From Candidatus Heimdallarchaeota archaeon (GTDB lineage Archaea > Asgardarchaeota > Heimdallarchaeia > Heimdallarchaeales > Kariarchaeaceae), in NCBI GenBank assembly GCA_030149205.1, contig JASBSB010000004.1, positions 180,001 through 212,000 of the forward strand: DNA of 32,000 nt, read 5' to 3'. Below are positions 233-20,768 of this stretch, piece after piece. Every line of letters starts with the position of its first letter. Position 1 is the stretch's first letter. Below the pieces are notes generated by a model, which saw only the letters and a list, made by a program, of their open reading frames with translations, had not been told where the DNA came from and did not search any database. The translations under genes were made by a program, and so were the position numbers.

Positions 233-1309
233 TTAACCACCAAAAGCTGTTAAGATATTTCTATAAGCGTCAATCCCAGTTGTTAAAATTACAACCGTTC
301 CGGCTACCAAAATGAGTAGTGTCGAGATAAAACCTCGCTTGTTTGATGTATAATATTTATTAGCACCAAATCCTGGAAAAACCTCAACAAGGACGTACAT
401 TCCAAGTAAACTTGCAATTAATCTTAAAGTGACAATTAAAGAAGGATCACTAACGCTTGTAGATGTTAGATAAAAGATAAACCCAGCTATAACGATTAAA
501 TAATAAACAAACATACTTTCATCAGGGAATAACTTGGTGTAAAAGTATTCTTTCAAACTATAATCAACCTGTTGTTGTCCTCCCATAGGATTGGAGACAA
601 ATACTGCTACTGCGTCTTGTGTGAATTTCCGGTTTTTAAGATCAGGTTTCAAGTTAAATAATAAAATTGGAACAAAGAAGGAAGAACTTACGAGGGCAAT
701 TATTAAACCAAAGTATGAAATATTAAATTTAATATCAAACCCTTTTTGACGAATTCTATATCTGTATAGGTAAATAATTCCAAATGGAAGGGTTAGGTTT
801 AGCAAAATTGAGTATAAGATAACAAAAAAATTCGGAAAACTATTAATTACAATCATAAACCTAAACCATAATGAAATCCCTAGGATTAATCCAAGAAAAG
901 ACAAAGATTTTATTTCATCATTGGTAAAGAGTGGAGTGTCACCATATTTAGGTATTAGATTGTAAGGAATTGATGTGTCTGAAGCGATATACCACGGTGT
1001 TGTACTCTGGGTTTGCAATTGACTAGGAGGAATCATAGGAGAAGGGGATTCAGAAGGGATATAGCTGTTAGAAGAAGTAGGAGATCCAGATGGGATATAA
1101 CTAGAAGAGGGAGTTCCCTGCCCCCCCTTCAAATCAAATCCACATTTTGGGCAAAAGTTTTGGTTGGGATTTATAGAATTTTGGCAATTAGGACAGATAG
1201 CTTGACCTGCTTGTGGAAGTTCTGGTAGGGAAGAACCACATCTTTGACAAAATCGATCACCCTGTTGGTATATTTTACTACATACAGGGCACTTACCTGA
1301 GCTCAACAA
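233..1309 (-). CDS. Double zinc-ribbon protein with Ser/Pro linker and multi-pass membrane domain (degenerate M50/site-2-protease-like)
   Basis: Four CxxC pairs (CPVC, CQRC, CPNC, CPKC), then an S/P-rich repeat linker, then about 6 hydrophobic segments. The membrane part resembles archaeal M50 peptidases but has no HExxH. TTG start. Confidence 0.75.
   Translation of the reverse strand: MLSSGKCPVCSKIYQQGDRFCQRCGSSLPELPQAGQAICPNCQNSINPNQNFCPKCGFDLKGGQGTPSSSYIPSGSPTSSNSYIPSESPSPMIPPSQLQTQSTTPWYIASDTSIPYNLIPKYGDTPLFTNDEIKSLSFLGLILGISLWFRFMIVINSFPNFFVILYSILLNLTLPFGIIYLYRYRIRQKGFDIKFNISYFGLIIALVSSSFFVPILLFNLKPDLKNRKFTQDAVAVFVSNPMGGQQQVDYSLKEYFYTKLFPDESMFVYYLIVIAGFIFYLTSTSVSDPSLIVTLRLIASLLGMYVLVEVFPGFGANKYYTSNKRGFISTLLILVAGTVVILTTGIDAYRNILTAFGG
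1044..1102. repeat. Intragenic imperfect direct repeat, 36-bp period (SYIPSxSP x2)
   Basis: ggggattcagaagggatatagct (1044-1066) and ggagatccagatgggatataact (1080-1102) match at 19/23 positions. They encode SYIPSESP and SYIPSGSP on the minus strand. Confidence 0.85.
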
Positions 1310-1377
1310 TTCCCTAATTAAAATAAGTATTTTAATAGGTTCTATTCAAGCATCATAAATTTAGATAATTATCAACC

Positions 1378-2571
1378 TTATTTCTCTAAAACTGAGATTC
1401 CAGGCAGTTCCTTGCCAGAAAGTAGTTCAAGAGTTGCTCCTCCACCTGTTGAAAGATGTATTGGTGAATTATCAGGCAGAGTAAGATTTGATTTCTGAAG
1501 CATTTTATTGATTGCATAAACACTGTCACCTCCACCAATTATAGTTCTTACCTGTCTTTGTAGGATGAATTCAGCAACTTGTTCTGTCCCCTTAGCAAAA
1601 TTATCCACCTCAAAAACACCCATTGGACCATTCCAAAATATAGTTTCTGCTTTCTCAATCTCTTTTTTTATAAGGGATAAAGTTTCAGAACCAATATCTA
1701 CACCAATCATCCCTTCTGGAATTTCAGTAACCTTCACATATTTGATTTCTGAAGGCTCTTTAATAGAGTCTGAAACTACCACATCTTTTGGAAGAATAAG
1801 GGTCTTGCTCAATTTCTTGGCTTGGGATATAACCGACTCCGCTTCACCTAACATCTCCGCTTCTAAAAGTGAGTTTTTTACATCAATCCCCTGTGATTTG
1901 AGAAAGGTGAAGGCCATACCTCCACCAATTATAAAGGTATCAGCCTTATTTAGAAAATTTTGCACAACTGGTAGTTTATCAGAAACCTTTGCTCCTCCAA
2001 ATAGAGTTAAGACTGGCTTCTTTGGTTTGTCGAGAGCAGGAAGAATTGCATCTAATTCTTTTTTCACAAGGAGACCTGCGTAGGCTTTAAGATATCTCGC
2101 TATCCCAACTGTTGAAGCATGAGCTCTATGTAAAGAACCAAATGCATCATTGACAAAAATATCTCCAAATTTAGCTAATTGATTGCTAAGGATCGGATCA
2201 TTTTTCTTTTCACCTTCCACAAATCGAGTGTTTTCAAGAACCAAAATCTCACCAAAGCTTAATTCATTGTAAAGTTTTGTTGACTCTTCACCAACTAATT
2301 CTCTGGAAAATTGAACATTAACCTTAAGTAATTCACTCAAACGTTCAGCTACAGGTTTAAGAGATAAAGATAAGTCAATCCCCTTGGGTCTTCCCAGGTG
2401 TGAGATTAATACAATTTTACAATGTTTAGACAATAAGTAGTGAATAGTTGGCAGGGCTGCTTTTATTCTTGTATCATCATTTATGACCCCCTCCTTTATA
2501 GGAACGTTGAAATCCACTCTCATTAAAATAGATTTATTCTCAACATTAATATCCAAAATACTTTTGACCAT
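1378..2571 (-). CDS. pgk: Phosphoglycerate kinase (bacterial-type sequence)
   Basis: Motifs RVDFNVP, DDTRIKAALPTI, SHLGRP, LENTRF, NDAFGSLHRAHAS, GGAKVSDK, WNGPMGVFE, GGGDS and STGGGA...GKELPG. Confidence 0.97.
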   Translation of the reverse strand: MVKSILDINVENKSILMRVDFNVPIKEGVINDDTRIKAALPTIHYLLSKHCKIVLISHLGRPKGIDLSLSLKPVAERLSELLKVNVQFSRELVGEESTKLYNELSFGEILVLENTRFVEGEKKNDPILSNQLAKFGDIFVNDAFGSLHRAHASTVGIARYLKAYAGLLVKKELDAILPALDKPKKPVLTLFGGAKVSDKLPVVQNFLNKADTFIIGGGMAFTFLKSQGIDVKNSLLEAEMLGEAESVISQAKKLSKTLILPKDVVVSDSIKEPSEIKYVKVTEIPEGMIGVDIGSETLSLIKKEIEKAETIFWNGPMGVFEVDNFAKGTEQVAEFILQRQVRTIIGGGDSVYAINKMLQKSNLTLPDNSPIHLSTGGGATLELLSGKELPGISVLEK

Positions 2572-2832
2572 GGTTTTGCTTTGGCAATTTGTATTATAAA
2601 AGTAAAGTTAACCTCCTGATATTTTAATTCATATTCACTAAGATATTGAGAATAGGCTAAAATAGTAGAAATTCCAAATTTGAGTGTGTTTGAAGTTATT
2701 GAAGTTATTACTTTATAGGTTCAACTAATTATACTGCAAGAATAAAATTTAACAATGTTTAACAGATTTTCCTTGAAAAAGTCAAGACTAACAAGTAAGT
2801 TATATTAATGAAGGGTTAATCTTTAGTTAAGA

Positions 2833-5049
2833 ATGAGTGATGGCAAGCTTCACATAGGATATTCTATGAAAAATAATGAAGAGATCAGTTTACCTTTAAA
2901 GACATTAAAAAGACATTTCGCCGCCCTAGGTGCTTCAGGTTCTGGTAAAACGGTATTTGTTAAAGCTGTGCTTGAGGAATGTGTGCGAGAGGGTGTACCC
3001 CTTGTTCTGATTGATATTCAAGGTGATTTGGCAAGTATAGCTCTAATGGGGGATAAAAATACAGTGGAAGCGAAAGGTACCCCTAAATCTTATTGGGATG
3101 ATGTTCAAAAACAGGCGCAAGTCGCGATTTTTACACCTGCTAGCACAAAAGGTATACCTATCTCAATGAATCCACTGAAGGAACCACCAGAAAATTTGGA
3201 ACATGAGGATTTTATCCAGGCTGTGGATAGTGTTGCAGAAGCAATTGCTAGTATCTTAGGTTATAATACAGATAAGGGAAAAGGAAAAGATGTCCATTCT
3301 TATCTCTATCTTTTGTTGGAAGCTATCTGGGAGAAAGGGCGAACAATTAACTCATTTACAACCCTTGCAAATATTATGCTTGAGGATACTGAATTTTTGG
3401 ATCAATCTGCAATTTCAATTTTGAAAGAAAAAGATAAGGATGAGTTAATCAAGCAGGTCAGGTCACTTACAATCGGTACGGATTCTTTAATTTTTAATTT
3501 AGGAATGCCATTGGATATTGAACGGATGATGACTTGGGCTGACCCCGGGAAAACTCCTGTCAATGTTTTATATTTAAACACAATTCGAGATGAGGATACG
3601 AAACGAAATTTCATCGCGGATATTGCTAATCAAACCTATAATTTTATGTTGAGAAATCCCTCAGAAGAAGTACAACTTGTCTTTTTATTAGATGAGTTAG
3701 CAGGTTTAGTTCCACCAATAGGAAACCCACCCACTAAGAAAAGTATCCAATTGCTATTGAAGCAGGCGAGGAAATATGGTGTTTCCCTCCTTTTAGCTAC
3801 TCAAAATATTACTGATGTTGATTACAAATCATTGGGGCAGGTTGGAACATGGGCTTTAGGTAGATTTATGGCTAAACAGGACATTGAAAAGGTTAGAGCA
3901 ATTATTGAGGCAATCAGCCCTAATGAAGTTGAAAAAATAACCTCTGAATTGAGGAGATTAAAAACTGGTCAGTTCATGCTCTTAGCTCCAGATGTATATG
4001 ATCAGGTACAGTTTATGAGAGTCCGATGGTTAGTTACTAACCATATAACATTGGATGAGGAAAAGGTTAAAAGAATCATGGACGAATCTGGTATTAGAAA
4101 CAGATTTCCTGAGCCTAACTTTAAACGAAGAAAACCTGATGAACCAGAAGAAAATGAACAAACACTTGAGGAAGAACTTCAGGAAGATCAACTTATAAAA
4201 ACTAAAGACGAATTGACTGCGATCCCCAAAATGAGCGAAGTTAAGGATTTAGAGAAAACATTAGAAGACGAACCAATCGTATTAAGTATTGAAGATATTT
4301 CATATCAGTTAGATTTACCTGAAAAAGAATCGGAAAAACTAGTTCAAACCCTCCTAAAGGAAAACAAACTTGAAAAAGAAGAGATCGAAGGAGTAACTCT
4401 CTATTGGTCAAAGAAGCATGAGATGGATCCGTCTCGAAATATTGTGGGACCCCTATTTCGAGCACATCTTGAGATACCCAAGGGAAAAGCAGAGTCAATT
4501 GTTGATAAGAATATTCCAAAGGATCTATGGAAAAAGAGGGAAATTATAGTTGATAATAAAACAAAATTGTTCTATCTACCTCTTTGGAGAATATCTACCG
4601 TTGAAATAGTTACAGAGACAAGAGGAGGTGGATTGTTTAAGAAGAAAATAGCAATTCAAAAAGAAGTAAAAGTTGTTCATTATGTTAATGGATTGACCGG
4701 AGAAATCACTCATCTTGAAAAAGATAAAAAAGAGACATCGTTACTGTTTAAAAAATCAGGAATTCAATCAAAGAAAGATATCAATCCTTTGGGAAAGGAA
4801 ATCAAGTTTGAGAAAGAAGTATTATCGGGTTTGACTGCAGCAGACACCCCTCCTAAACTTAATCGTGAACAGGCAAAAAAAGAATTAATTAAACTCCTTG
4901 GTGCTCATATAGATAAAGATACTATTTCTTCTATTGTTTGGTTCCCTATCTGGTCTTTCACCAAATGGGATGAAGCTAAACAGATGAATTCTTACGCATG
5001 GGTAGAAGGAATTTTTGGAACATATTATGAAGATAACCCCCTTAATTGA
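2833..5049 (+). CDS. HerA/FtsK-superfamily ATPase (DUF87/DUF853-like) with winged helix and duplicated C-terminal module
   Basis: RHFAALGASGSGKT (Walker A), LIDIQGD, FLLDE (Walker B) and ARKYGVSLLLATQ (arginine finger and sensor TQ). An acidic linker, an HTH-like segment and a twice-repeated xPxW...V(N/E)GxxG module follow. Confidence 0.85.
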   Translation: MSDGKLHIGYSMKNNEEISLPLKTLKRHFAALGASGSGKTVFVKAVLEECVREGVPLVLIDIQGDLASIALMGDKNTVEAKGTPKSYWDDVQKQAQVAIFTPASTKGIPISMNPLKEPPENLEHEDFIQAVDSVAEAIASILGYNTDKGKGKDVHSYLYLLLEAIWEKGRTINSFTTLANIMLEDTEFLDQSAISILKEKDKDELIKQVRSLTIGTDSLIFNLGMPLDIERMMTWADPGKTPVNVLYLNTIRDEDTKRNFIADIANQTYNFMLRNPSEEVQLVFLLDELAGLVPPIGNPPTKKSIQLLLKQARKYGVSLLLATQNITDVDYKSLGQVGTWALGRFMAKQDIEKVRAIIEAISPNEVEKITSELRRLKTGQFMLLAPDVYDQVQFMRVRWLVTNHITLDEEKVKRIMDESGIRNRFPEPNFKRRKPDEPEENEQTLEEELQEDQLIKTKDELTAIPKMSEVKDLEKTLEDEPIVLSIEDISYQLDLPEKESEKLVQTLLKENKLEKEEIEGVTLYWSKKHEMDPSRNIVGPLFRAHLEIPKGKAESIVDKNIPKDLWKKREIIVDNKTKLFYLPLWRISTVEIVTETRGGGLFKKKIAIQKEVKVVHYVNGLTGEITHLEKDKKETSLLFKKSGIQSKKDINPLGKEIKFEKEVLSGLTAADTPPKLNREQAKKELIKLLGAHIDKDTISSIVWFPIWSFTKWDEAKQMNSYAWVEGIFGTYYEDNPLN

Positions 5050-5178
5050 TAATTTATGTAAGTAAGATAATACAGGTTTTTTTAAAAATGGATAAAATTT
5101 TGGTTGTTCTTACCATTTTTTTAAGTTGAAGCAAACAAGATTTATCAAGCAGTAATCTTTCAGAAACAAGGAAAGCAA

Positions 5179-6189
5179 ATGACTGACAGCAATCAGAGTT
5201 CAGAGACACCTCAAGAGCCCAAGAAATCAAAATATCGATTTGACCCTTCTGACGGGATTGATATGAATGATTTTCTTGGGATTTTTGTTGGAATATACAA
5301 GTTCTTCAAAATTATTGTTTTAATCATTATAAGCCCACTTACCTGGATATTTAATGAAAACATTAGAATGATAAAATTCTTTAGAGCAGAAACAACGACT
5401 GAACCAATGAATACTAATGAGAAGTTGTTTTTTGAATCTATTCCCACAATATTTACAATAACAGGATTGACAAGTGGATTGATATTAGGGATCTTTGTTG
5501 CAATTTCTTTAAGAGATACCATAGACCAGTTTTTTAGAAATATAAATTTCATTGACTTCTTTTATTGGATAGGAGACATCATCAGAAATTTTTGGTTTGG
5601 AATTGTGTGGATATTTACCCAGCTTGATTACTTCTTTAATTCACTTTCAAAACTTGTGACTGACACAATAACATTTGTACAAACTAATTCATTATTGGCT
5701 TTTATTGTATTATTCCTTGTTGGGCTAGTAGTAATTATTCTGTTTGTTGTTTTTAATGAAACTAAAGGTTTTGATTTCGTTATCAACTTTGTTTCGATGA
5801 TCTATAATAAAATCATTGGGTCACCAGAATTATTTAAAATTAGAATGATAAATCTCTATAGGAAATTTAATCATCTAATTTCAAGGATAGTTGTTGGAGA
5901 AGAAAGACTCAACACAAGAACACTTCAATACTTTCAAAAAGTCACATGGTATACCATTTTAGGGTCTGCATGGGCTTATCTGGCGGGATTGATTGTTGCG
6001 ATTAACAATGCTGTGAGTCAGACTAATACATTTGACAAGGTTGCATTTGTAACATTGGTCTTATTCTCTGCAGGCTTTATTTCAGGATTATTTCTATTAG
6101 GTCTTTTTGCAAGATTACTAGATGTCTTCAAAAGAGGTAAATACATTGCAGAATCAACAAAAGGTGGTTCTGAAACAGCAGAAGCATAG
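5179..6189 (+). CDS. Multi-pass membrane protein of unknown function
   Basis: 336-aa ORF with ATG start and about 5-6 hydrophobic segments (e.g. LLAFIVLFLVGLVVIILFVVF). No recognised motif. Confidence 0.75.
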   Translation: MTDSNQSSETPQEPKKSKYRFDPSDGIDMNDFLGIFVGIYKFFKIIVLIIISPLTWIFNENIRMIKFFRAETTTEPMNTNEKLFFESIPTIFTITGLTSGLILGIFVAISLRDTIDQFFRNINFIDFFYWIGDIIRNFWFGIVWIFTQLDYFFNSLSKLVTDTITFVQTNSLLAFIVLFLVGLVVIILFVVFNETKGFDFVINFVSMIYNKIIGSPELFKIRMINLYRKFNHLISRIVVGEERLNTRTLQYFQKVTWYTILGSAWAYLAGLIVAINNAVSQTNTFDKVAFVTLVLFSAGFISGLFLLGLFARLLDVFKRGKYIAESTKGGSETAEA

Positions 6190-6209
6190 GATTAAATTTT
6201 TAATTAGAC

Positions 6210-7481
6210 TTACTTATCTTGTAGATATTCAATCAAATCATCCTTAATTCCTCTTAATATTGCCTTTGAAAGATCTAAAGGCTCATGGACATTAACAAGT
6301 CTTTTCCTGAGAATAAAATTTAATCCTTGATAATTATCAATTATATTTTCAGCTTTCATTTTATAAAAAATGATTATTATTGTGGTTTTGTTAATGTCAA
6401 GATACCCTTCGGTCTTATCACTCAGAATCATGAATATTGAAGAGAGATCTGTTCTATTAGAAACAGGAAGAGGTCCGAATATGTTTCGTTCAAAGCTTTT
6501 GGCTTGGTTTAGAAGAGAAAAATAGAAGATTGCTGATTTTAATAGGTCTTCCTCTGCTATGAATCCCTTCTCTCCAACGAAATATTGAATTGAAGGTCCT
6601 AACTCACCAAAATATGAGGAAGCAATAGCAATACTTGATGAATAATTTTGTTCGATCCTTTGGAGATTCGTGAGAAGTTTATTAAAATTTATTGAGGGGG
6701 GAGTGGGAAGACCGAGCTCCTCAGGTTGAATTTGCATGAAAAACCTCTTTGTTTGATTTCTTGACGTCAATAGCATAACAGCACTTTCAAAAATTGCCTT
6801 GATAAAATCTTCTGGATAAACGTACCTTAATTCTTCTCTTAAATCAAAAGGTATTGTTTTCAATGCATCTAAAACTTCTCTCTCTGAATAATTACCCCAA
6901 ATTTCTTCTTTTGCTGTTAGATCAAAGGTGTCAATACTCAGTTCAAAATATGGTGAAAGCTTAGAAGGGTAACTGTTTAAAATTGAGAAAATTTGGGATT
7001 TGATTACTTTTCTCACATTAATAGAAGTAATCGCCAATAGCTCCTTCAAAAACAAGGATACTACATTTGTACAAAGTTCTATTTTTGATAGGTTCATAGC
7101 CGTTGGTATATAATAAGAATCTCTAATTTTTGTGAGAACAGTCAAAAGAGCTTCATCTTCTATAGGCTTCTTTAAGTAATCAACTGCCCCATAATCCAGG
7201 GCAAGCTTAATTAGTTCATCTTCTGCTAATCCAGAAAGAACGATTACATTTGTGTGAGGTTTTTCCTCTAAAATCTTTTTCAGTACTTCAATCCCAGATT
7301 TCCTTGGTAAAATAATATCTAGGAAGACTAAATCAAAATTTAAATTAAATATTTGAGGAATTGTTGATTCATAACTATCAAAAATCTGTACAACATTGTG
7401 ACCTAATCCCTTTATTTTTTCATTCAATAACTTTTGAATGAACATAGAATCATCAATTACTATACAATTTAATTCTGACAA
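6210..7481 (-). CDS. Response-regulator receiver domain fused to a C-terminal uDENN/longin-like domain
   Basis: Receiver residues are intact: D10-D11, D55 (FLDIILP), S83 and K105-P106. The C-terminus has SYFGELGPSIQY and IFGPLPV, resembling the uDENN first strand (F-x-x-x-x-GP) and, from memory, Asgard uDENN-like proteins. The TTG start is forced by an in-frame TGA two codons upstream. Confidence 0.8.
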   Translation of the reverse strand: MSELNCIVIDDSMFIQKLLNEKIKGLGHNVVQIFDSYESTIPQIFNLNFDLVFLDIILPRKSGIEVLKKILEEKPHTNVIVLSGLAEDELIKLALDYGAVDYLKKPIEDEALLTVLTKIRDSYYIPTAMNLSKIELCTNVVSLFLKELLAITSINVRKVIKSQIFSILNSYPSKLSPYFELSIDTFDLTAKEEIWGNYSEREVLDALKTIPFDLREELRYVYPEDFIKAIFESAVMLLTSRNQTKRFFMQIQPEELGLPTPPSINFNKLLTNLQRIEQNYSSSIAIASSYFGELGPSIQYFVGEKGFIAEEDLLKSAIFYFSLLNQAKSFERNIFGPLPVSNRTDLSSIFMILSDKTEGYLDINKTTIIIIFYKMKAENIIDNYQGLNFILRKRLVNVHEPLDLSKAILRGIKDDLIEYLQDK

Positions 7482-7595
7482 TTTTCATTTTTACTTCGTT
7501 CTTAAAACTACTTAAACTATCGGAAATCTTCACTAATAAATACAGATTCAGACTAAAATATAAGTTTCTCTTTATTTTTGCTTTAATTTAATATT

Positions 7596-9107
7596 TCAAT
7601 CAGTTCCTATCACAGGTTCCTTTTCAGAATTTATTGACGGTTCTTTTTTAAGAGTATGGCTTGGGAGTTTTAAAATTCCAAAAACCAACCCAGCAACAAG
7701 TAGAAGTTCAAACAACACGAACCCCACCAATAATGCAAGATCAGCGTTATGAATTACCCCTAAGAAATTCAATAAAGCAAAGAATCCAATGAAGAGACCA
7801 CCTCCTAAGATCCCTATAATTTCACCTGAAGCTATTACAAAGTGGTATCCGGACATGACATGGCCATCCTCCTTCTCACCATCCTTAGCAGTCTCTCCTA
7901 ATGAACCCATTAAGACGGGTATAAAGGCTGAAAAGAAGAAAATAGATGGAACTAATGACAATAAGAAAGGAATATTGCTAATTATCGATGCTTGTTTTGA
8001 CAATAACCCTGCTCGGTAAAAGGGGAAGCCCACAGCTAAACCAATCACTAAAAATATGGGGGACCCAAATAAGCCAATCTTCATAGTTCTAAACTTATCA
8101 TGACGATCAGCGTACCATCCCCAAAGTGGAGCAGGTAGAGCAAGTGCAACAAGAATGAACATTATAGGCAAGATAGCCTCCAAACCTCTTGAATTTGAAT
8201 GGGCATTTGAGGATCCTGCAACCCTAAATGCAACACTTGGTCCCCAAACGGATGCAGAACCAATCAATGCAGCGATAGAAATCCAAGGTAGTAAAAGATG
8301 TCTTCTATCTTTTTCCATCATGACTGAGTATGCAATCTTCATATCTTTTTTAAGGGAAAATTTGTTTGGAACATCCTTTTTAGGAATATCTTCAATTCCC
8401 CAGTAAATCAAAAGAGTTGCTATTAATAATAGAACTGCCAAAGGAAGATAAGTGGCTGAAATAAGTTCTGATTGCACTGTGAGGTTTTTTGTCCCATCAA
8501 CACCAAACGCAACCCACAGTAGTCCGCCAAGAATCATTCCTCCTGCCCTACCATATAATATTGCATTATCATAATAGGACATATGTAAAGTTCGGTTGCT
8601 AAGATCGGAGTGGTGATTGATAAAACCTAATGTAGGAGCAACTTTTGCCGCAGCAAAAATTCCATGAATAAAGTGTATCAATGCTAAAAAGGCAGTTAAC
8701 ATCAGGATTCCTGTGTAAGGGTGAGCTTGATAACTAAACCTGTATACTATTGATGCCGGAGTGTATAATAAAACAACAAACATGGAACCAAAGGTTGCCC
8801 ATAATACAACAGGTCTTGCACCTATACGATCTGATTTGTTTCCGTAGTAACCGGTAAGCATAATTTCAGCTATCAGATAAGTGATAGCGGCAAATGAGGT
8901 CAAAAGAATTGATTCCACACTAGAATGTGCAGCTACACCTAATGAAAGCTCAATTCCCCAGACCAGCGTCCAATCAAAAATTACTAAGATTGCACCAAAC
9001 CCGACACGCAGTAAAAAGGTTGCAATTATGAGCAACCAAATCTGAGTTGAGATGGGAGTTTTATGATGTGCGACCTCAGCGTTAACTGTAGCCATAATTC
9101 CTCTCAT
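7596..9107 (-). CDS. MFS transporter
   Basis: About 12 hydrophobic segments, with MFS motif A in both halves (GNKSDRIGARPV and GWYADRHDKFR). Substrate not inferable. Confidence 0.85.
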   Translation of the reverse strand: MRGIMATVNAEVAHHKTPISTQIWLLIIATFLLRVGFGAILVIFDWTLVWGIELSLGVAAHSSVESILLTSFAAITYLIAEIMLTGYYGNKSDRIGARPVVLWATFGSMFVVLLYTPASIVYRFSYQAHPYTGILMLTAFLALIHFIHGIFAAAKVAPTLGFINHHSDLSNRTLHMSYYDNAILYGRAGGMILGGLLWVAFGVDGTKNLTVQSELISATYLPLAVLLLIATLLIYWGIEDIPKKDVPNKFSLKKDMKIAYSVMMEKDRRHLLLPWISIAALIGSASVWGPSVAFRVAGSSNAHSNSRGLEAILPIMFILVALALPAPLWGWYADRHDKFRTMKIGLFGSPIFLVIGLAVGFPFYRAGLLSKQASIISNIPFLLSLVPSIFFFSAFIPVLMGSLGETAKDGEKEDGHVMSGYHFVIASGEIIGILGGGLFIGFFALLNFLGVIHNADLALLVGFVLFELLLVAGLVFGILKLPSHTLKKEPSINSEKEPVIGTD

Positions 9108-9189
9108 TTTTGTTCATATTTATACATCACTATAAAGATTGAAGGAAAAACTTGAAATTAAATTTTATCTTGTTTTAATAACTGATATT

Positions 9190-11517
9190 TTAGATTTCTT
9201 TAGTCTCATCAATAAATGAGAGAGGGAGTGATACCATTAATGGATACATTTGGATCATCGAAATTATTGGATCTACATACCTAATAATAGGTAAAGCAAA
9301 GTTATCATCCTGCCAAAAATATGGATGAGTGGCATATCCAATCAAACCGATACTCTGAAATTTAACAATATCAACTAAGGGTGGTAGAGGTTCTGCTTTA
9401 TCAATTTTACCAGTTTCCAAATTCCAAAACAACATACCAATTTGAATTGAAAGTTCCCCCAAATACTTTTTTATAGCAGTGGTATCTGAAAACTCTTCCT
9501 TTTCATTTTCTTCCATTACCATGCCTTCAAAATGTATCATTTGGTTATAGTAATCTTTAGAAACAGAAGAACTGAATGTCCATGATCCTTTAAGTGGATC
9601 TAATATATGTTTAAACAGTTTTGTTCTAATTTTAGATTGTTCCGTGTATAATTCAGAGTGAAGTAATTTCTCTAATGCTGGTAATTTATCTATGTTAAAT
9701 CTTAAGAATTTGTTTGGTTTAAATTCTTTACTCAAATGAAAATCAGAAGATCCTTTGTTGATTAAATATTCAATATAAGTTAGATTGATCATATAGGGAA
9801 TAGCTTTATTTTGTTGATTTCTAGTGAAATTAAACTGAATAACATAAGTGTGAAAATATACTACAATTGGACCTAGAATTAATATAGAGTCGGCCTTATG
9901 TTTTTCAAACTTATATAAAAAACTAAACCAATTCACTAAAAACTTTAAAATTATTTCAGATATTTCAAAATAGCCTATAAGATAATCTGGGATCAAGTCT
10001 CCAAAGTTATCAATATCAACCAAATATAACATTCTCGTTAAAGGGAATAAGATCAACGATTCAAATTGTTCATCAAAATTTTGAGAATTTAAAATCAATT
10101 TAAAATGCTCCTCAAATGGATATTGGTTTAAGAATATCTGTAGAATTAACTCAAACGAACTCTTTACCTCTGATGATTGTATTTCAATTAGTTCAAGGAT
10201 ATTCGAAAATAAATCTGGATCAAAAAATTTTGGCTGTCTAATCAAAAACAATGAATCTAGATATATTCTACGGAGGTAGTTCACAAAAATAGATTGAAAT
10301 TTGATTCTCCTTGAAAGCTCATTAATAAAATTGGGATCTGAAATATCTATTTCAAAGTTCTGTGACACATAAGTCCTACTAAGCTTTATATTAAAATCAA
10401 CTAGTAAATTTAATACTTCATTCCATCTATTCAATATTTCTGTGACAGCTTGTGATGATAATAATTTGTCAATTAACCTAATAAATGAAAATATACCTTG
10501 CATTATAATATCAAGGAACCTGATGTGAACTTTGGATTCCAAAAGAGATGAATGAATTATTGATAATGCTCTATTTAAGGAATAAGTACCTTGAAAAGTT
10601 TCCAAAGTTCGATTTAAAAAATCTGAGAGGATATCAACCCCAATGTTATTTATTAAGAGTGAGTCAACTGTTTTTAATTCAATCATTTTAATCATAAATC
10701 GCAGTTGATCCTTGGTTTTTTCCTCAAAGGTTTTTTGAAGATCATACAAAATTTTAATTCTTTGTTCGATTTTTGGAAGTGAGTTAAGACCAGAAATAAT
10801 CAGACTTCTAATATATAAAATATTTAAACAAACCCACGCAAGATTTGAGATCTTAAGACTTCGCAACGTTTGCTCAAAAAAATTATGAAAATAAGATAAA
10901 ATTGGGGTAAACTTCTCTTGAAGCTCATAATTATAACGGTTCTCTACGAATAACATCCTCAATATTTCATTATAAATTTCAAAAATTTCCAAAATAGATA
11001 TTGGAGTTGCCTCATAGATCTTTTCTGTTAAAAATTGTTTTATTTTATTTTTGTTGACATAGTTTGATTGTTTTGTACTCATTAAAAACTCTTCAACTAG
11101 TTTATAATCTTTAAATGAAGGTTTTTCAAAAACCAATGTTCTTAAAGCCTCTCGAAATCCTTCATCAATTTCAAACTTGGGAATGTTCCACCTGCTTGGT
11201 AACTTTTTGTTTATTAAAGTTAAACAATTATTGATATAATTAATTTCGAGCAAATCAGAGTTTGCAAAAAGTAAATGTCTTAAAAAGTCTCCTACAACAT
11301 CTAATTCCTCATTAATAAGAGAGGTCGAAAGTAAATGATCCTGAAGAATGGTTTGCAACTGATTTTTTATACGGTTTTCTTCTGATTCAGTTTTCAATAA
11401 ATCAATTATACCTTCCAATTTAGATATGTGAATTAAGCCTCTTGTTGGGTATTCATACCTGTTCAAATCCACTTTGTTCTCAACATATTGTATTATTGGA
11501 CAACGAAGAAACACCAA
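9190..11517 (-). CDS. Large hypothetical protein, probably mostly alpha-helical
   Basis: 775-codon stop-free frame in AT-rich DNA, rich in L/I/F/E/K, with no motif recognised. Start uncertain (TTG at 11517 or a GTG about 16 codons downstream). Confidence 0.7.
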   Translation of the reverse strand: MVFLRCPIIQYVENKVDLNRYEYPTRGLIHISKLEGIIDLLKTESEENRIKNQLQTILQDHLLSTSLINEELDVVGDFLRHLLFANSDLLEINYINNCLTLINKKLPSRWNIPKFEIDEGFREALRTLVFEKPSFKDYKLVEEFLMSTKQSNYVNKNKIKQFLTEKIYEATPISILEIFEIYNEILRMLFVENRYNYELQEKFTPILSYFHNFFEQTLRSLKISNLAWVCLNILYIRSLIISGLNSLPKIEQRIKILYDLQKTFEEKTKDQLRFMIKMIELKTVDSLLINNIGVDILSDFLNRTLETFQGTYSLNRALSIIHSSLLESKVHIRFLDIIMQGIFSFIRLIDKLLSSQAVTEILNRWNEVLNLLVDFNIKLSRTYVSQNFEIDISDPNFINELSRRIKFQSIFVNYLRRIYLDSLFLIRQPKFFDPDLFSNILELIEIQSSEVKSSFELILQIFLNQYPFEEHFKLILNSQNFDEQFESLILFPLTRMLYLVDIDNFGDLIPDYLIGYFEISEIILKFLVNWFSFLYKFEKHKADSILILGPIVVYFHTYVIQFNFTRNQQNKAIPYMINLTYIEYLINKGSSDFHLSKEFKPNKFLRFNIDKLPALEKLLHSELYTEQSKIRTKLFKHILDPLKGSWTFSSSVSKDYYNQMIHFEGMVMEENEKEEFSDTTAIKKYLGELSIQIGMLFWNLETGKIDKAEPLPPLVDIVKFQSIGLIGYATHPYFWQDDNFALPIIRYVDPIISMIQMYPLMVSLPLSFIDETKEI

Positions 11518-11688
11518 AGAACAAATTTCATATAACTATAAAAAAATTTTGGGAATTTTGAGTGTTAAAATCTGGTTTTTAGTTATTATTGATTGCGTCA
11601 ATAAATACTATTAGAATTACCCATCCAATTTAACAAATAATCTAATGAAAAAGAAAGAACTCTTAAACTTAGTTTGTTATGAAACCTT

Positions 11689-12249
11689 GTGAACTCTTCT
11701 GAAAATTCAGAAAATTTAACTGCAAAAGCGGTTATAATTGGTGATCCTGCTGTTGGTAAAACTTCAATAAAAAAAAGATATTTTGGGACTGGATTTCATG
11801 AAGAATATATAATGACCCTTGGGGCAGGTTTTTCCGTTAAGAAAATTCATCTCGATGATAATCGAGTATTAAAATTAAATGTATGGGATCTTGCTGGTCA
11901 GGAATCTTTCAATCAAGTTCGACCGGTATTTTATAAAGGAACCTCTGCACTTATTTTGGTCTTTGACCTTACAAACCAAGATTCATTTCAAAACTTAGAA
12001 AAATGGGTTACAGAATTTTGGAGTCACTCCGGAAGTCCAAACAATATCCCAGTAATACTTGTTGGAAACAAGTTAGATCTTCTTTCAAAGGAACCTAAAA
12101 TGGAGGATTATAAAGAATTTTGGAAAAAATTTCAATCGATTCATCCTCAATTTTCAGGTGGAAAGCTCTCGATTTTTACCTCTGCCAAAACTGGAGTAAA
12201 TATTAATGAAATGTTTGATAAACTAAAATCTATGATGAAATTAGATTAG
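11689..12249 (+). CDS. Rab-like small GTPase (Ras superfamily)
   Basis: G1 GDPAVGKT, G2 YIMT, G3 WDLAGQE, G4 NKLD and G5 SAK are all present. RabF-like segments: LGAGF, KLNVW, FYKGT, LVFDLT. No C-terminal cysteines. GTG start. Confidence 0.95.
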   Translation: MNSSENSENLTAKAVIIGDPAVGKTSIKKRYFGTGFHEEYIMTLGAGFSVKKIHLDDNRVLKLNVWDLAGQESFNQVRPVFYKGTSALILVFDLTNQDSFQNLEKWVTEFWSHSGSPNNIPVILVGNKLDLLSKEPKMEDYKEFWKKFQSIHPQFSGGKLSIFTSAKTGVNINEMFDKLKSMMKLD

Positions 12250-19682: not shown

Positions 19683-20768
19683 TTATTCGGATTCTTTGTT
19701 GATGCTGTCTTTGATCTCTTCCAATGTTTTCCCAATGTTATATAGAACCATCAATATTTGATCAAAGCCTTCAATTTGAATATTTTGGAATGATTTTTGT
19801 AATTCTAGATTCCTGGCTTCGTGTAATGCATTTGATAAAAATGCACGTAAAATTCTTGTTGTAACATCCTGAACATCAAAATTATTCATATCCAAATCGT
19901 GAGAAATTTCTGAGACATCAACCTCATCCAGAAATTCATTGATGAGTTTTTGTGAAGTCTTATCAAGAATTTCTTCTTCACTAGAATCGTCCATGAAGTC
20001 ATCATTTTCTTCTAATTGAACCACCCCTATTTTGGGATCGTTACCTGCTTCTATTGGAGGTTTGATTTTGTGTACATCTGTTTCAACAGGATCCTCTTGA
20101 TTTACCAACCACCTAACATACCTTATAAACAGCTCCATATTTGGTTTATATTTCATCCCCACACTTGAATCATTAAGTATTTCATGGGTTCCTATAGCAA
20201 TTAATTTTCCAGACATATTATCTCCACTCCTTACGGCAATCGCTTGAATACCTCCCATAGTTGTGGAAGTGCTTGTCAATAAGATCCGTTGTGGACTGGC
20301 AATAAATGAAACAGTATTAGAAAAGGGATACTCCTCCTCACCAGAATCATTGGGAACTGTCTCTGCTTTCATACCTTTTATGACATTAGGGTCTTCATAG
20401 AAGTTATTTCTTGGGTCAAAAAGCACAGAATCTGTAGTTTGAATTCCAAAATGGTTCAAGATTGAATTTAGGTTTGTTTTGTTTTTAGTGTCTCCACCTG
20501 CACGGCATAACACCAAAAGCGATCCCCCTTCTCTAACATAAGAAATTAATGCATTCACCTCATAAGGTTGATATTTTTTCCCTAAAGGTGAAAGCAAAAT
20601 AAAGAGGTTGTATTTCTCTAAAGTCCTGATTTTAAGGGGGTCCTCTGTTTCAACTGATAACAGATACCCTTTTTGAGTTAATACAGACATCATTAATCTG
20701 TAATATGAGGAAATAAGAGATTCTTGACCTTTAGTTGCATCAATCCCAACAAAAATTGGACGGGTCAC
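19683..20768 (-). CDS. Cytoplasmic GIFT (GldG/IFT52/DUF4350-like) domain protein with acidic, helical C-terminus
   Basis: FILLSP...YEVNALISYVREGGSLLVLCRAGGD...TNLNSILNHFGI and GKLIAIG...D......N...F....RWL fit the GIFT fold pattern. No signal peptide or TM segment. GTG start. Confidence 0.7.
   Translation of the reverse strand: MTRPIFVGIDATKGQESLISSYYRLMMSVLTQKGYLLSVETEDPLKIRTLEKYNLFILLSPLGKKYQPYEVNALISYVREGGSLLVLCRAGGDTKNKTNLNSILNHFGIQTTDSVLFDPRNNFYEDPNVIKGMKAETVPNDSGEEEYPFSNTVSFIASPQRILLTSTSTTMGGIQAIAVRSGDNMSGKLIAIGTHEILNDSSVGMKYKPNMELFIRYVRWLVNQEDPVETDVHKIKPPIEAGNDPKIGVVQLEENDDFMDDSSEEEILDKTSQKLINEFLDEVDVSEISHDLDMNNFDVQDVTTRILRAFLSNALHEARNLELQKSFQNIQIEGFDQILMVLYNIGKTLEEIKDSINKESE

Follow-up and report, generated by a model that had tools for sequence, protein, structure and literature searches.

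A response-regulator receiver joined to a predicted folliculin-class longin in a Heimdallarchaeal genome: a candidate non-catalytic partner in small-GTPase control

The window analysed here, a 32,000-nucleotide stretch of an Asgard archaeal genome (Candidatus Heimdallarchaeota archaeon, contig JASBSB010000004.1; C1:180001-212000 in our numbering), carries on its minus strand a gene for a three-part protein: a CheY-like receiver, a helical middle domain and a C-terminal domain predicted to be a longin (Table 1). The source assembly amounts to 3.3 Mb in 12 contigs and is 93.5% complete. A first-pass annotation, made from the sequence alone, had described the gene as a phospho-receiver with a full active site, followed by a helical region and a uDENN/longin-like domain. 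The receiver is complete only if translation begins at the TTG at 7481, the sole canonical in-frame start downstream of the preceding TGA; otherwise strand 1 with its acidic pair, D10/D11, would be missing. The N-termini of the orthologs read M-x-x-L-x-C-I-I-I-D-D-S. Pfam PF00072 (Response_reg) matches residues 7-116 with an E of 1.1e-21 and 77.5 bits against a cut-off of 30.2, and in the ortholog alignment D10, D11, D55 and K105 are invariant and S83 is nearly so, with Y102 at the aromatic switch position. Re-reading the codons for D10, D11, D55, S83 and K105 in the window DNA confirmed each of them, and the active site listed in the first-pass annotation holds, given the TTG start. The public database copy of the protein has 411 aa, begins at the internal ATG (M13) and is without D10/D11 (window 7445-7481); the TTG start was probably overlooked by gene callers.

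Table 1. Features of the receiver-longin gene and its neighbours, in window coordinates
Feature	Position	Strand	Basis
Whole gene: receiver, middle domain and longin, 423 aa, with stop codon	6210..7481	-	Open reading frame; orthologs of 420-427 aa with the same build
TTG start codon	7479..7481	-	In-frame TGA directly upstream; next ATG is M13
CheY-like receiver, residues 7-116	7134..7463	-	Pfam PF00072; invariant columns; codons re-read
Middle domain, residues 128-258: helical bundle and one beta hairpin	6708..7100	-	Model with predicted local distance difference test (pLDDT) 81 and predicted template modelling score (pTM) 0.76, folded alone
Leading helix and longin, residues 266-423	6213..6686	-	AlphaFold2 model; structure searches
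GP motif G295-P296, start of strand 2 (model 171-172)	6594..6599	-	Alignment and model
Strand 4-5 loop, residues 355-365, DKTEGYLDINK: short, variable, no Arg	6387..6419	-	Alignments; codons re-read
R394, C-terminal end of helix 2	6300..6302	-	Alignments
MFS transporter, directly upstream of the regulator	7596..9107	-	Pfam MFS_1
Rab/Ras-like small GTPase, 186 aa, candidate partner	11689..12249	+	Pfam Ras, E 1.7e-39; GDPAVGKTS, WDLAGQE, NKLD, SAK

The remainder of the protein, residues 125-423, had no match in the Pfam scan. We modelled it with AlphaFold2 from a 10-sequence alignment (mean pLDDT 79.8; protein number = model number + 124). Model residues 160-298 (protein 284-422) follow the order strand-strand-helix-strand-strand-strand-helix-helix, which is the longin topology (E160-168, E171-178, H186-201, E210-216, E219-230, E242-249, H251-271, H282-298). 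In a search of 48,161 PDB representatives ranked by Z, independent of Foldseek, the best match was the longin of a Lokiarchaeota Roadblock-Longin protein (8yqg_B; Z 12.4 over 138 aa at 3.0 Å, 14% identity, Foldseek probability 1.0), followed by the longin of Kluyveromyces lactis Lst4 (4zy8_C, Z 11.5) and by chains from a C9orf72-SMCR8 complex entry (7o2w, Z 10.3, 137 aa), two folliculin complex entries (6nzd_H and 6ulg_N, Z 10.0 and 9.5) and a GATOR1 complex entry (8fw5_B, Z 8.9). Longins of CPLANE, TRAPP, DENND10, adaptin sigma/mu and SNARE proteins scored Z 7-8.7, among them DENND10 (8p0v) at 8.4; DENND1A (6ekk) reached 7.0. There are 13 chains with a Z of at least 8, and the 13 top-ranked rows are all of longin fold. 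Foldseek returned the same set of matches, with an E no better than 2.6e-3. A shape search of the ESM Atlas retrieved Asgard GTPase-longin fusions, a Heimdall cluster partly annotated as Folliculin, and rows for SMCR8, DENND11/Avl9 (template modelling (TM) score 0.36) and NPRL2; the Atlas feature search gave weak rows only (0.76-0.78). A roadblock/LC7 (MglB-like) identity, which would call for the order helix-strand-strand-helix-strand-strand-strand without two C-terminal helices, was rejected, given two such helices in the model and the roadblock chains at Z 6-7.2 (MglB, 6.7). Comparison of the last ~145 residues with solved folds, the check proposed in the first-pass annotation, thus yielded a longin and no unrelated fold.

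The class of this longin differs from the one first suggested. The longin is the C-terminal domain, and the protein stops one residue past helix 3, with no core DENN, dDENN or NPRL2-specific domain after it and no DENN match in Pfam. Neither PF11704 (Folliculin) nor PF06218 (NPR2) was found in the source genome at an E up to 1. Both C-terminal motifs to which attention had been drawn are present, SYFGELGPSIQY (containing G295-P296) and IFGPLPV (334-340), and their cores, G-P and G-P-x-P, are kept across the family; G295 is invariant and P296 is found in 12 of 13 orthologs. FLCN, NPRL2, SMCR8 and C9orf72 are described as having a GP motif either where strand 2 begins or in the final part of the loop before it, and FNIP2, NPRL3, adaptins, TRAPP and DENND proteins as lacking one (PMC12290439). 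Because G295-P296 stands at the start of strand 2, we place the domain with the FLCN/NPRL2/SMCR8/C9orf72 type rather than with the uDENN of DENND and AVL9 proteins, and the model indicates that it is a longin of that class. The earlier uDENN/longin assignment therefore stands as to the longin fold, whose nearest solved relatives are GTPase-regulator longins and an Asgard longin, and is revised as to class, on the GP motif and the missing DENN core. One class of Asgard longins carries both the GP motif and an arginine finger, and GTPase-activating protein (GAP) activity has been raised as a possibility for GP-motif Asgard longins (PMC12290439).

Relatives sharing the full build are few. An exhaustive phmmer search with residues 125-423 against 1.84 billion representatives returned ~10, each of 420-427 aa with an N-terminal receiver, and word-indexed searches added four; ortholog comparisons of the longin rest on 13 sequences. 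Among 301 genomes of the phylum the full-length build is restricted to the family of the source genome, f1 (10/10 besides the source genome itself). The last ~145 residues alone match many other proteins, in 59 of the 301 genomes, and Pfam scans placed these in stand-alone domains (165-174 aa), PAS-longin-GAF proteins (606 aa), TPR-longin proteins (468-672 aa) and a second receiver-longin group in family f4 (429-434 aa). Since the domain recurs in so many architectures, we regard it as a mobile Asgard signalling module that has no Pfam model. Hhalign showed no kinship between this longin and the genome's other long receiver protein (476 aa, at C7:32381-33808), which was ruled out as a relative.

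The output half of the window protein departs from these other longins in the loop between strands 4 and 5. We aligned the 13 orthologs with 13 paralogous domains of other architectures, all of which carry D-x-R-x-x-G in this loop (E-x-R-x-x-G in one). None of the 13 window-protein orthologs has the conserved arginine, and their loop is shorter and variable. Within the source genome, seven of the nine longins of the window-protein type have the loop arginine. R78 of NPRL2, which we take to stand just before strand 5, would put the arginine finger in the strand 4-5 loop, and, judged by how the strands are ordered in a longin sheet, it would be next to the GP-bearing loop between strands 1 and 2. 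The sole invariant arginine of the output half in the 13 orthologs is R394, which is family-specific and not found in the paralogues. Because the family is without the arginine loop that the paralogues keep, a self-sufficient GAP is unlikely.

A second protein of the same build travels with the family. The gene at C2:174808-176223 (472 aa; loci L035 and L045) encodes a receiver-like N-terminus, the same middle domain and a longin, and aligns with the window family over its full length (hhalign probability 89.7%, E 1.8e-6). In six orthologs its receiver has lost K105 (6/6) and S83 (5/6) and has no conserved acceptor aspartate; its longin retains both the GP motif and the arginine loop (TDERMGG). 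Of the 11 other f1 genomes 10 contain this paralogue, and of 35 further genomes of the order none does, the same distribution as that of the window family. The middle domain is specific to these two groups. It is predicted to be helical with one beta hairpin, as the first-pass annotation had in part anticipated, and a fold search of three libraries gave no convincing match for it (best results VIA Z 5.3, Foldseek E 0.77 and atlas TM below 0.5); we make no claim that its fold is new. The tree of window-family, paralogue and f4 proteins comprises three clades and is unrooted; we claim no order of duplication among them from a tree without a root. The related family f4 has a single receiver-longin (loci L014-L016; 429-434 aa) in which both the receiver (Pfam E 1e-21 to 1e-23 for L014 and L015) and the loop, D-P-R-M-x-G, are intact; it may represent the undivided state.

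The window has no HATPase_c match and in that sense no histidine kinase, as had been noted before. The source genome holds eight receiver matches and six HATPase_c matches, the latter belonging to two CheA proteins, GyrB, Hsp90, MutL and Topo VI-B. HisKA had no match, which leaves the two CheA as the only recognisable histidine kinases, and neither is close to the regulator gene. Both CheA proteins (C1:128739-130667 and C10:3635-5419) have the order Hpt-P2-dimerisation-HATPase-CheW, and each is encoded beside a single-domain receiver gene. From these gene contents the window receiver appears to be an orphan, with a CheA or a small phosphodonor as its most likely donor.

Evidence for a GTPase target comes from the gene neighbourhood, a tree and a complex prediction. 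Genus g1 has MFS, regulator and GTPase genes in that order, the regulator and the GTPase ~100 bp apart, and the MFS gene upstream of the g1 ortholog is the same neighbour as in the window (67% identity). A second lineage, comprising L004 and, from genus g5, L013, has a GTPase gene that convergently overlaps the end of the regulator, so that direct adjacency is seen in two of six genera (g1 and g5); a GTPase neighbourhood conserved across the whole family was considered and rejected, as it is seen in those two only. The ortholog-adjacent GTPases form one clade (support 90/92), which the window GTPase joins at 86/62, a moderate support. The source genome has 28 small-GTPase genes, with 7.4% of its bases within 4.3 kb of one, and four of its nine longin genes of the window-protein type fall within that distance (binomial 0.003; the genes are not independent). 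One of these four encodes a GTPase-longin fusion (C4:64794-65819, 342 aa) that matches a small-GTPase profile at E 6e-41 and, over residues 184-336, a longin profile at E 4e-13, with a DER loop. Predicted as a complex, two copies of the longin with the window GTPase, GTP and Mg scored 0.59, the best of three controls scoring 0.00, which is weak support: among 80 solved complexes 58 attain the mark, as do 2 among 110 mismatched pairs, and at 0.60 or lower it is attained by only 7 of the 80 along with both of the passing mismatches. Between runs at least 87% of contacts agree, with a partner pLDDT of at least 85. The link of the regulator to the window GTPase, a pairing put forward in the first-pass annotation, comes out weakened, its supports being a patchy neighbourhood, a moderate tree support and the weak complex score of 0.59.

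Other features of these loci are recorded here. The g1 locus (L002 6452-17281) reads MFS, regulator, GTPase, Zn-ribbon protein, PGK, TPR protein, HerA-like ATPase and membrane protein; the corresponding part of the window (233-12249) is rearranged relative to it, with the HerA-like and membrane-protein genes abutting the 3' end of the regulator and the GTPase on the far side. A 775-aa open reading frame (ORF; 9190-11517, minus strand) without a Pfam match lies within the lowest-GC stretch of the window (0.284 at 10001-12000), is absent at the syntenic g1 locus and looks like an insertion parting regulator from GTPase. It was rejected as a conserved partner, having neither a Pfam match nor similarity to the large neighbours of the orthologs. 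At loci of genera g2 and g3 (L025 4751-8500; L026 6273-9440; L029 9258-12487) the regulator stands beside a ~405-aa protein with a terminal Zn-ribbon/RING finger (32-35% identity among the three); the same loci carry a 500-731-aa protein without a Pfam match and, in L025 and L026, a 113-aa DCC1-like protein. Elsewhere in the window, a 361-aa protein (19683-20768, minus strand) matches the IFT52 GIFT domain (PF23355, E 8e-15), and a tRNA scan of the window found none.

Taking these observations together, we tentatively propose, at slightly less than an even chance, that the protein is a phosphorylatable CheY-type response regulator whose GP-longin output would form the regulatory, non-catalytic half of a Rab/Ras-like GTPase platform. 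It is read as the non-catalytic half because its longin keeps the GP motif and is without the arginine-bearing loop. The longin would be reached through the family-specific helical middle domain, and the whole would be comparable to C9orf72, FNIP and NPRL3. Phosphorylation of D55 would alter the pairing of the longin or its holding of the GTPase, and a partner longin, for which the best candidate is the dead-receiver, arginine-loop paralogue at C2:174808-176223, would supply the catalytic arginine, should hydrolysis be stimulated at all. The domain identities, the motifs, the lost arginine loop, the co-occurrence and the set of kinases come from the analysis itself; we infer GTPase binding, the heterodimer and the direction of regulation alike. 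In a stricter version, which we think rather improbable, the f1 pair with its complementary losses would be an obligate heterodimeric GAP for a Rab/Ras-like GTPase, switched by aspartate phosphorylation of the non-catalytic subunit. If true, this would provide a genetically simple prokaryotic counterpart of the asymmetric FLCN-FNIP, NPRL2-NPRL3 and SMCR8-C9orf72 pairs and an example of how asymmetry of this sort arises.

Several observations weigh against the proposal of a non-catalytic GTPase-platform subunit. The window GTPase lies 4.2 kb from the regulator, on the opposite strand and beyond two unrelated genes (the MFS gene and the 775-aa ORF), and is by score only the second-best match in the source genome to the ortholog-adjacent GTPases. 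The flanks covered in g2, g3, g4 and g6 contain no GTPase gene, and neither do those of P0004 and P0009, two members of the sub-clade to which the GTPase-linked genes belong. The paralogue adjoins neither the window gene nor any GTPase gene in the source genome, and no small GTPase stands beside its orthologs within the loci examined. A profile of residues 125-423 found no match among all PDB sequences at an E up to 10, and 13 longin domains searched against Pfam, also at an E up to 10, gave no longin, Folliculin (PF11704) or NPR2 (PF06218) match. The complex prediction may owe its pass to memory of solved longin-GTPase complexes. A kinase could be missing from the assembly, which is 93.5% complete. 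For a self-sufficient GAP role, the loss of the loop arginine in every ortholog counts on the negative side; that the eukaryotic finger lies in the strand 4-5 loop would follow from the NPRL2 sequence and from the geometry of the fold.

Most longin/roadblock platforms are exchange factors or scaffolds and not GAPs (PMC10933270), and a homodimeric longin platform without an arginine finger, serving a small GTPase as exchange factor, effector or localisation scaffold in the manner of Mon1-Ccz1, TRAPP or Ragulator, could be assembled by phospho-dimerised receivers with no need of the paralogue. The closest solved structure, 8yqg, is a longin homodimer, the model of two copies with the GTPase passed weakly (0.59 versus 0.00), and loss of the arginine loop fits a non-GAP role. 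Yet the GP motif is kept, a motif reported absent in the non-GAP longins of TRAPP, adaptins and DENND proteins (PMC12290439), the strict co-occurrence with an arginine-bearing paralogue of the same build would be left unexplained, and the score falls in a range in which wrong passes outnumber right ones; we consider this arrangement unlikely. The window protein might instead be a phospho-controlled GAP in its own right, with R394 replacing the lost loop arginine. The pattern is complementary, R394 being invariant in the 13 orthologs and absent in the paralogues, which have the loop arginine, and longin connectivity would bring the C-terminal end of helix 2 to the edge that carries the strand 1-2 and 4-5 loops. 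A conserved helical arginine may equally be structural, however, and we know of no longin GAP with a helix-borne finger, so that we give this possibility very little credence.

The longin may also have nothing to do with small GTPases and act as the adaptor output of a chemotaxis-like pathway on another target, such as the upstream MFS transporter, cytoskeletal proteins or the Zn-ribbon/RING protein. SNAREs, the SRP receptor and adaptor complexes contain longins as well (Z 7-8), a GTPase neighbour is missing from most orthologs, the neighbours in g2 and g3 are instead the ~405-aa Zn-ribbon/RING, 500-731-aa and DCC1-like proteins, and the MFS gene is a conserved upstream neighbour in g1. Against this, the best structural matches, the GP motif, the GTPase-longin fusion and the enrichment near GTPase genes all point to GTPases, and such an adaptor has, in our judgement, a small chance of being correct. 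The non-catalytic platform subunit remains the reading we prefer. In the nutrient signalling of eukaryotes and in disease, longin GAP pairs (folliculin, GATOR1, C9orf72-SMCR8) regulate Rag and Arf GTPases, and the Asgard origin of these pairs has been traced by motif and fold only. To our knowledge, neither a GTPase nor an input signal has been assigned to any Asgard longin. The present loci offer a small and soluble set of parts: a phospho-switch receiver-longin, an arginine-loop paralogue, a few candidate Rab/Ras-like GTPases, among them those at window 11689-12249, C4:161296-161859 and C7:277001-277579, and only two candidate kinases. If these act together, they would mark a route from prokaryotic His-Asp signalling to GTPase control of the eukaryotic type and a way in which the catalytic/non-catalytic asymmetry of longin GAPs can arise; if not, the protein is a further member of a published class of fusions.

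That class has been described in Asgard archaea: many fusions of NPRL2-like longins with two-component domains are reported there, and two-component systems are proposed to provide the input to regulators of this kind (Liu et al., bioRxiv 10.1101/2020.10.19.343400). The window protein resembles those fusions in combining a two-component domain with a longin of the NPRL2/folliculin kind in one Asgard protein, and differs in its extra middle domain, its missing arginine loop, its restriction to f1 and its pseudo-receiver paralogue; as the fusions are published there as a general statement, the family may overlap with that set. The hybrid of His-Asp signalling with a eukaryote-like GTPase regulator, suggested in the first-pass annotation, is borne out in the identities of receiver and longin and is, in view of that work, not new as an idea. 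We have not found in print the loss of the arginine loop in a receiver-bearing family, the strict co-occurrence with a pseudo-receiver, arginine-bearing paralogue, or the unrecognised middle domain.

Among proteins of known structure, the Lokiarchaeal longin 8yqg shares the Asgard origin, is the best structural match and was crystallised as a dimer, but it is fused to a roadblock domain and not to a receiver, and has no detectable sequence match to the window protein. The uDENN domains of DENND1A, DENND10 and AVL9/DENND11 have a longin-like fold and match less well than FLCN-type longins. For the signalling input, we liken the system to the MglA/MglB/RomR-RomX module of Myxococcus xanthus, which works under the Frz chemosensory pathway, the source genome having only CheA kinases; in M. 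xanthus, however, receiver and roadblock reside in two separate proteins, RomR and MglB, of which MglB is not a longin, and no motility link is seen for the window family. FLCN-FNIP2 and NPRL2-NPRL3 (6nzd, 6ulg, 8fw5; Lst4 4zy8) share the longin fold (Z 8.9-11.5), with the GP motif as in FLCN and NPRL2. They differ in having Rag GTPases at the lysosome as targets and DENN or NPRL2-specific domains at the C-terminus; the window protein would take its input from aspartate phosphorylation. In the C9orf72-SMCR8-ARF1 complex the arginine-less C9orf72 longin holds the GTPase and the SMCR8 longin provides Arg147 (PMC8213707). C9orf72 (PDB 7o2w, 7mge) is like the window protein in having the GP motif after strand 1 and no catalytic arginine, and unlike it in having a DENN domain after the longin and no receiver; its W33-D34 corresponds to Y290-F291 here, and no sequence kinship was detected. 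The eukaryotic rule of one arginine-bearing and one arginine-less paralogue is mirrored by the two co-occurring paralogues of f1.

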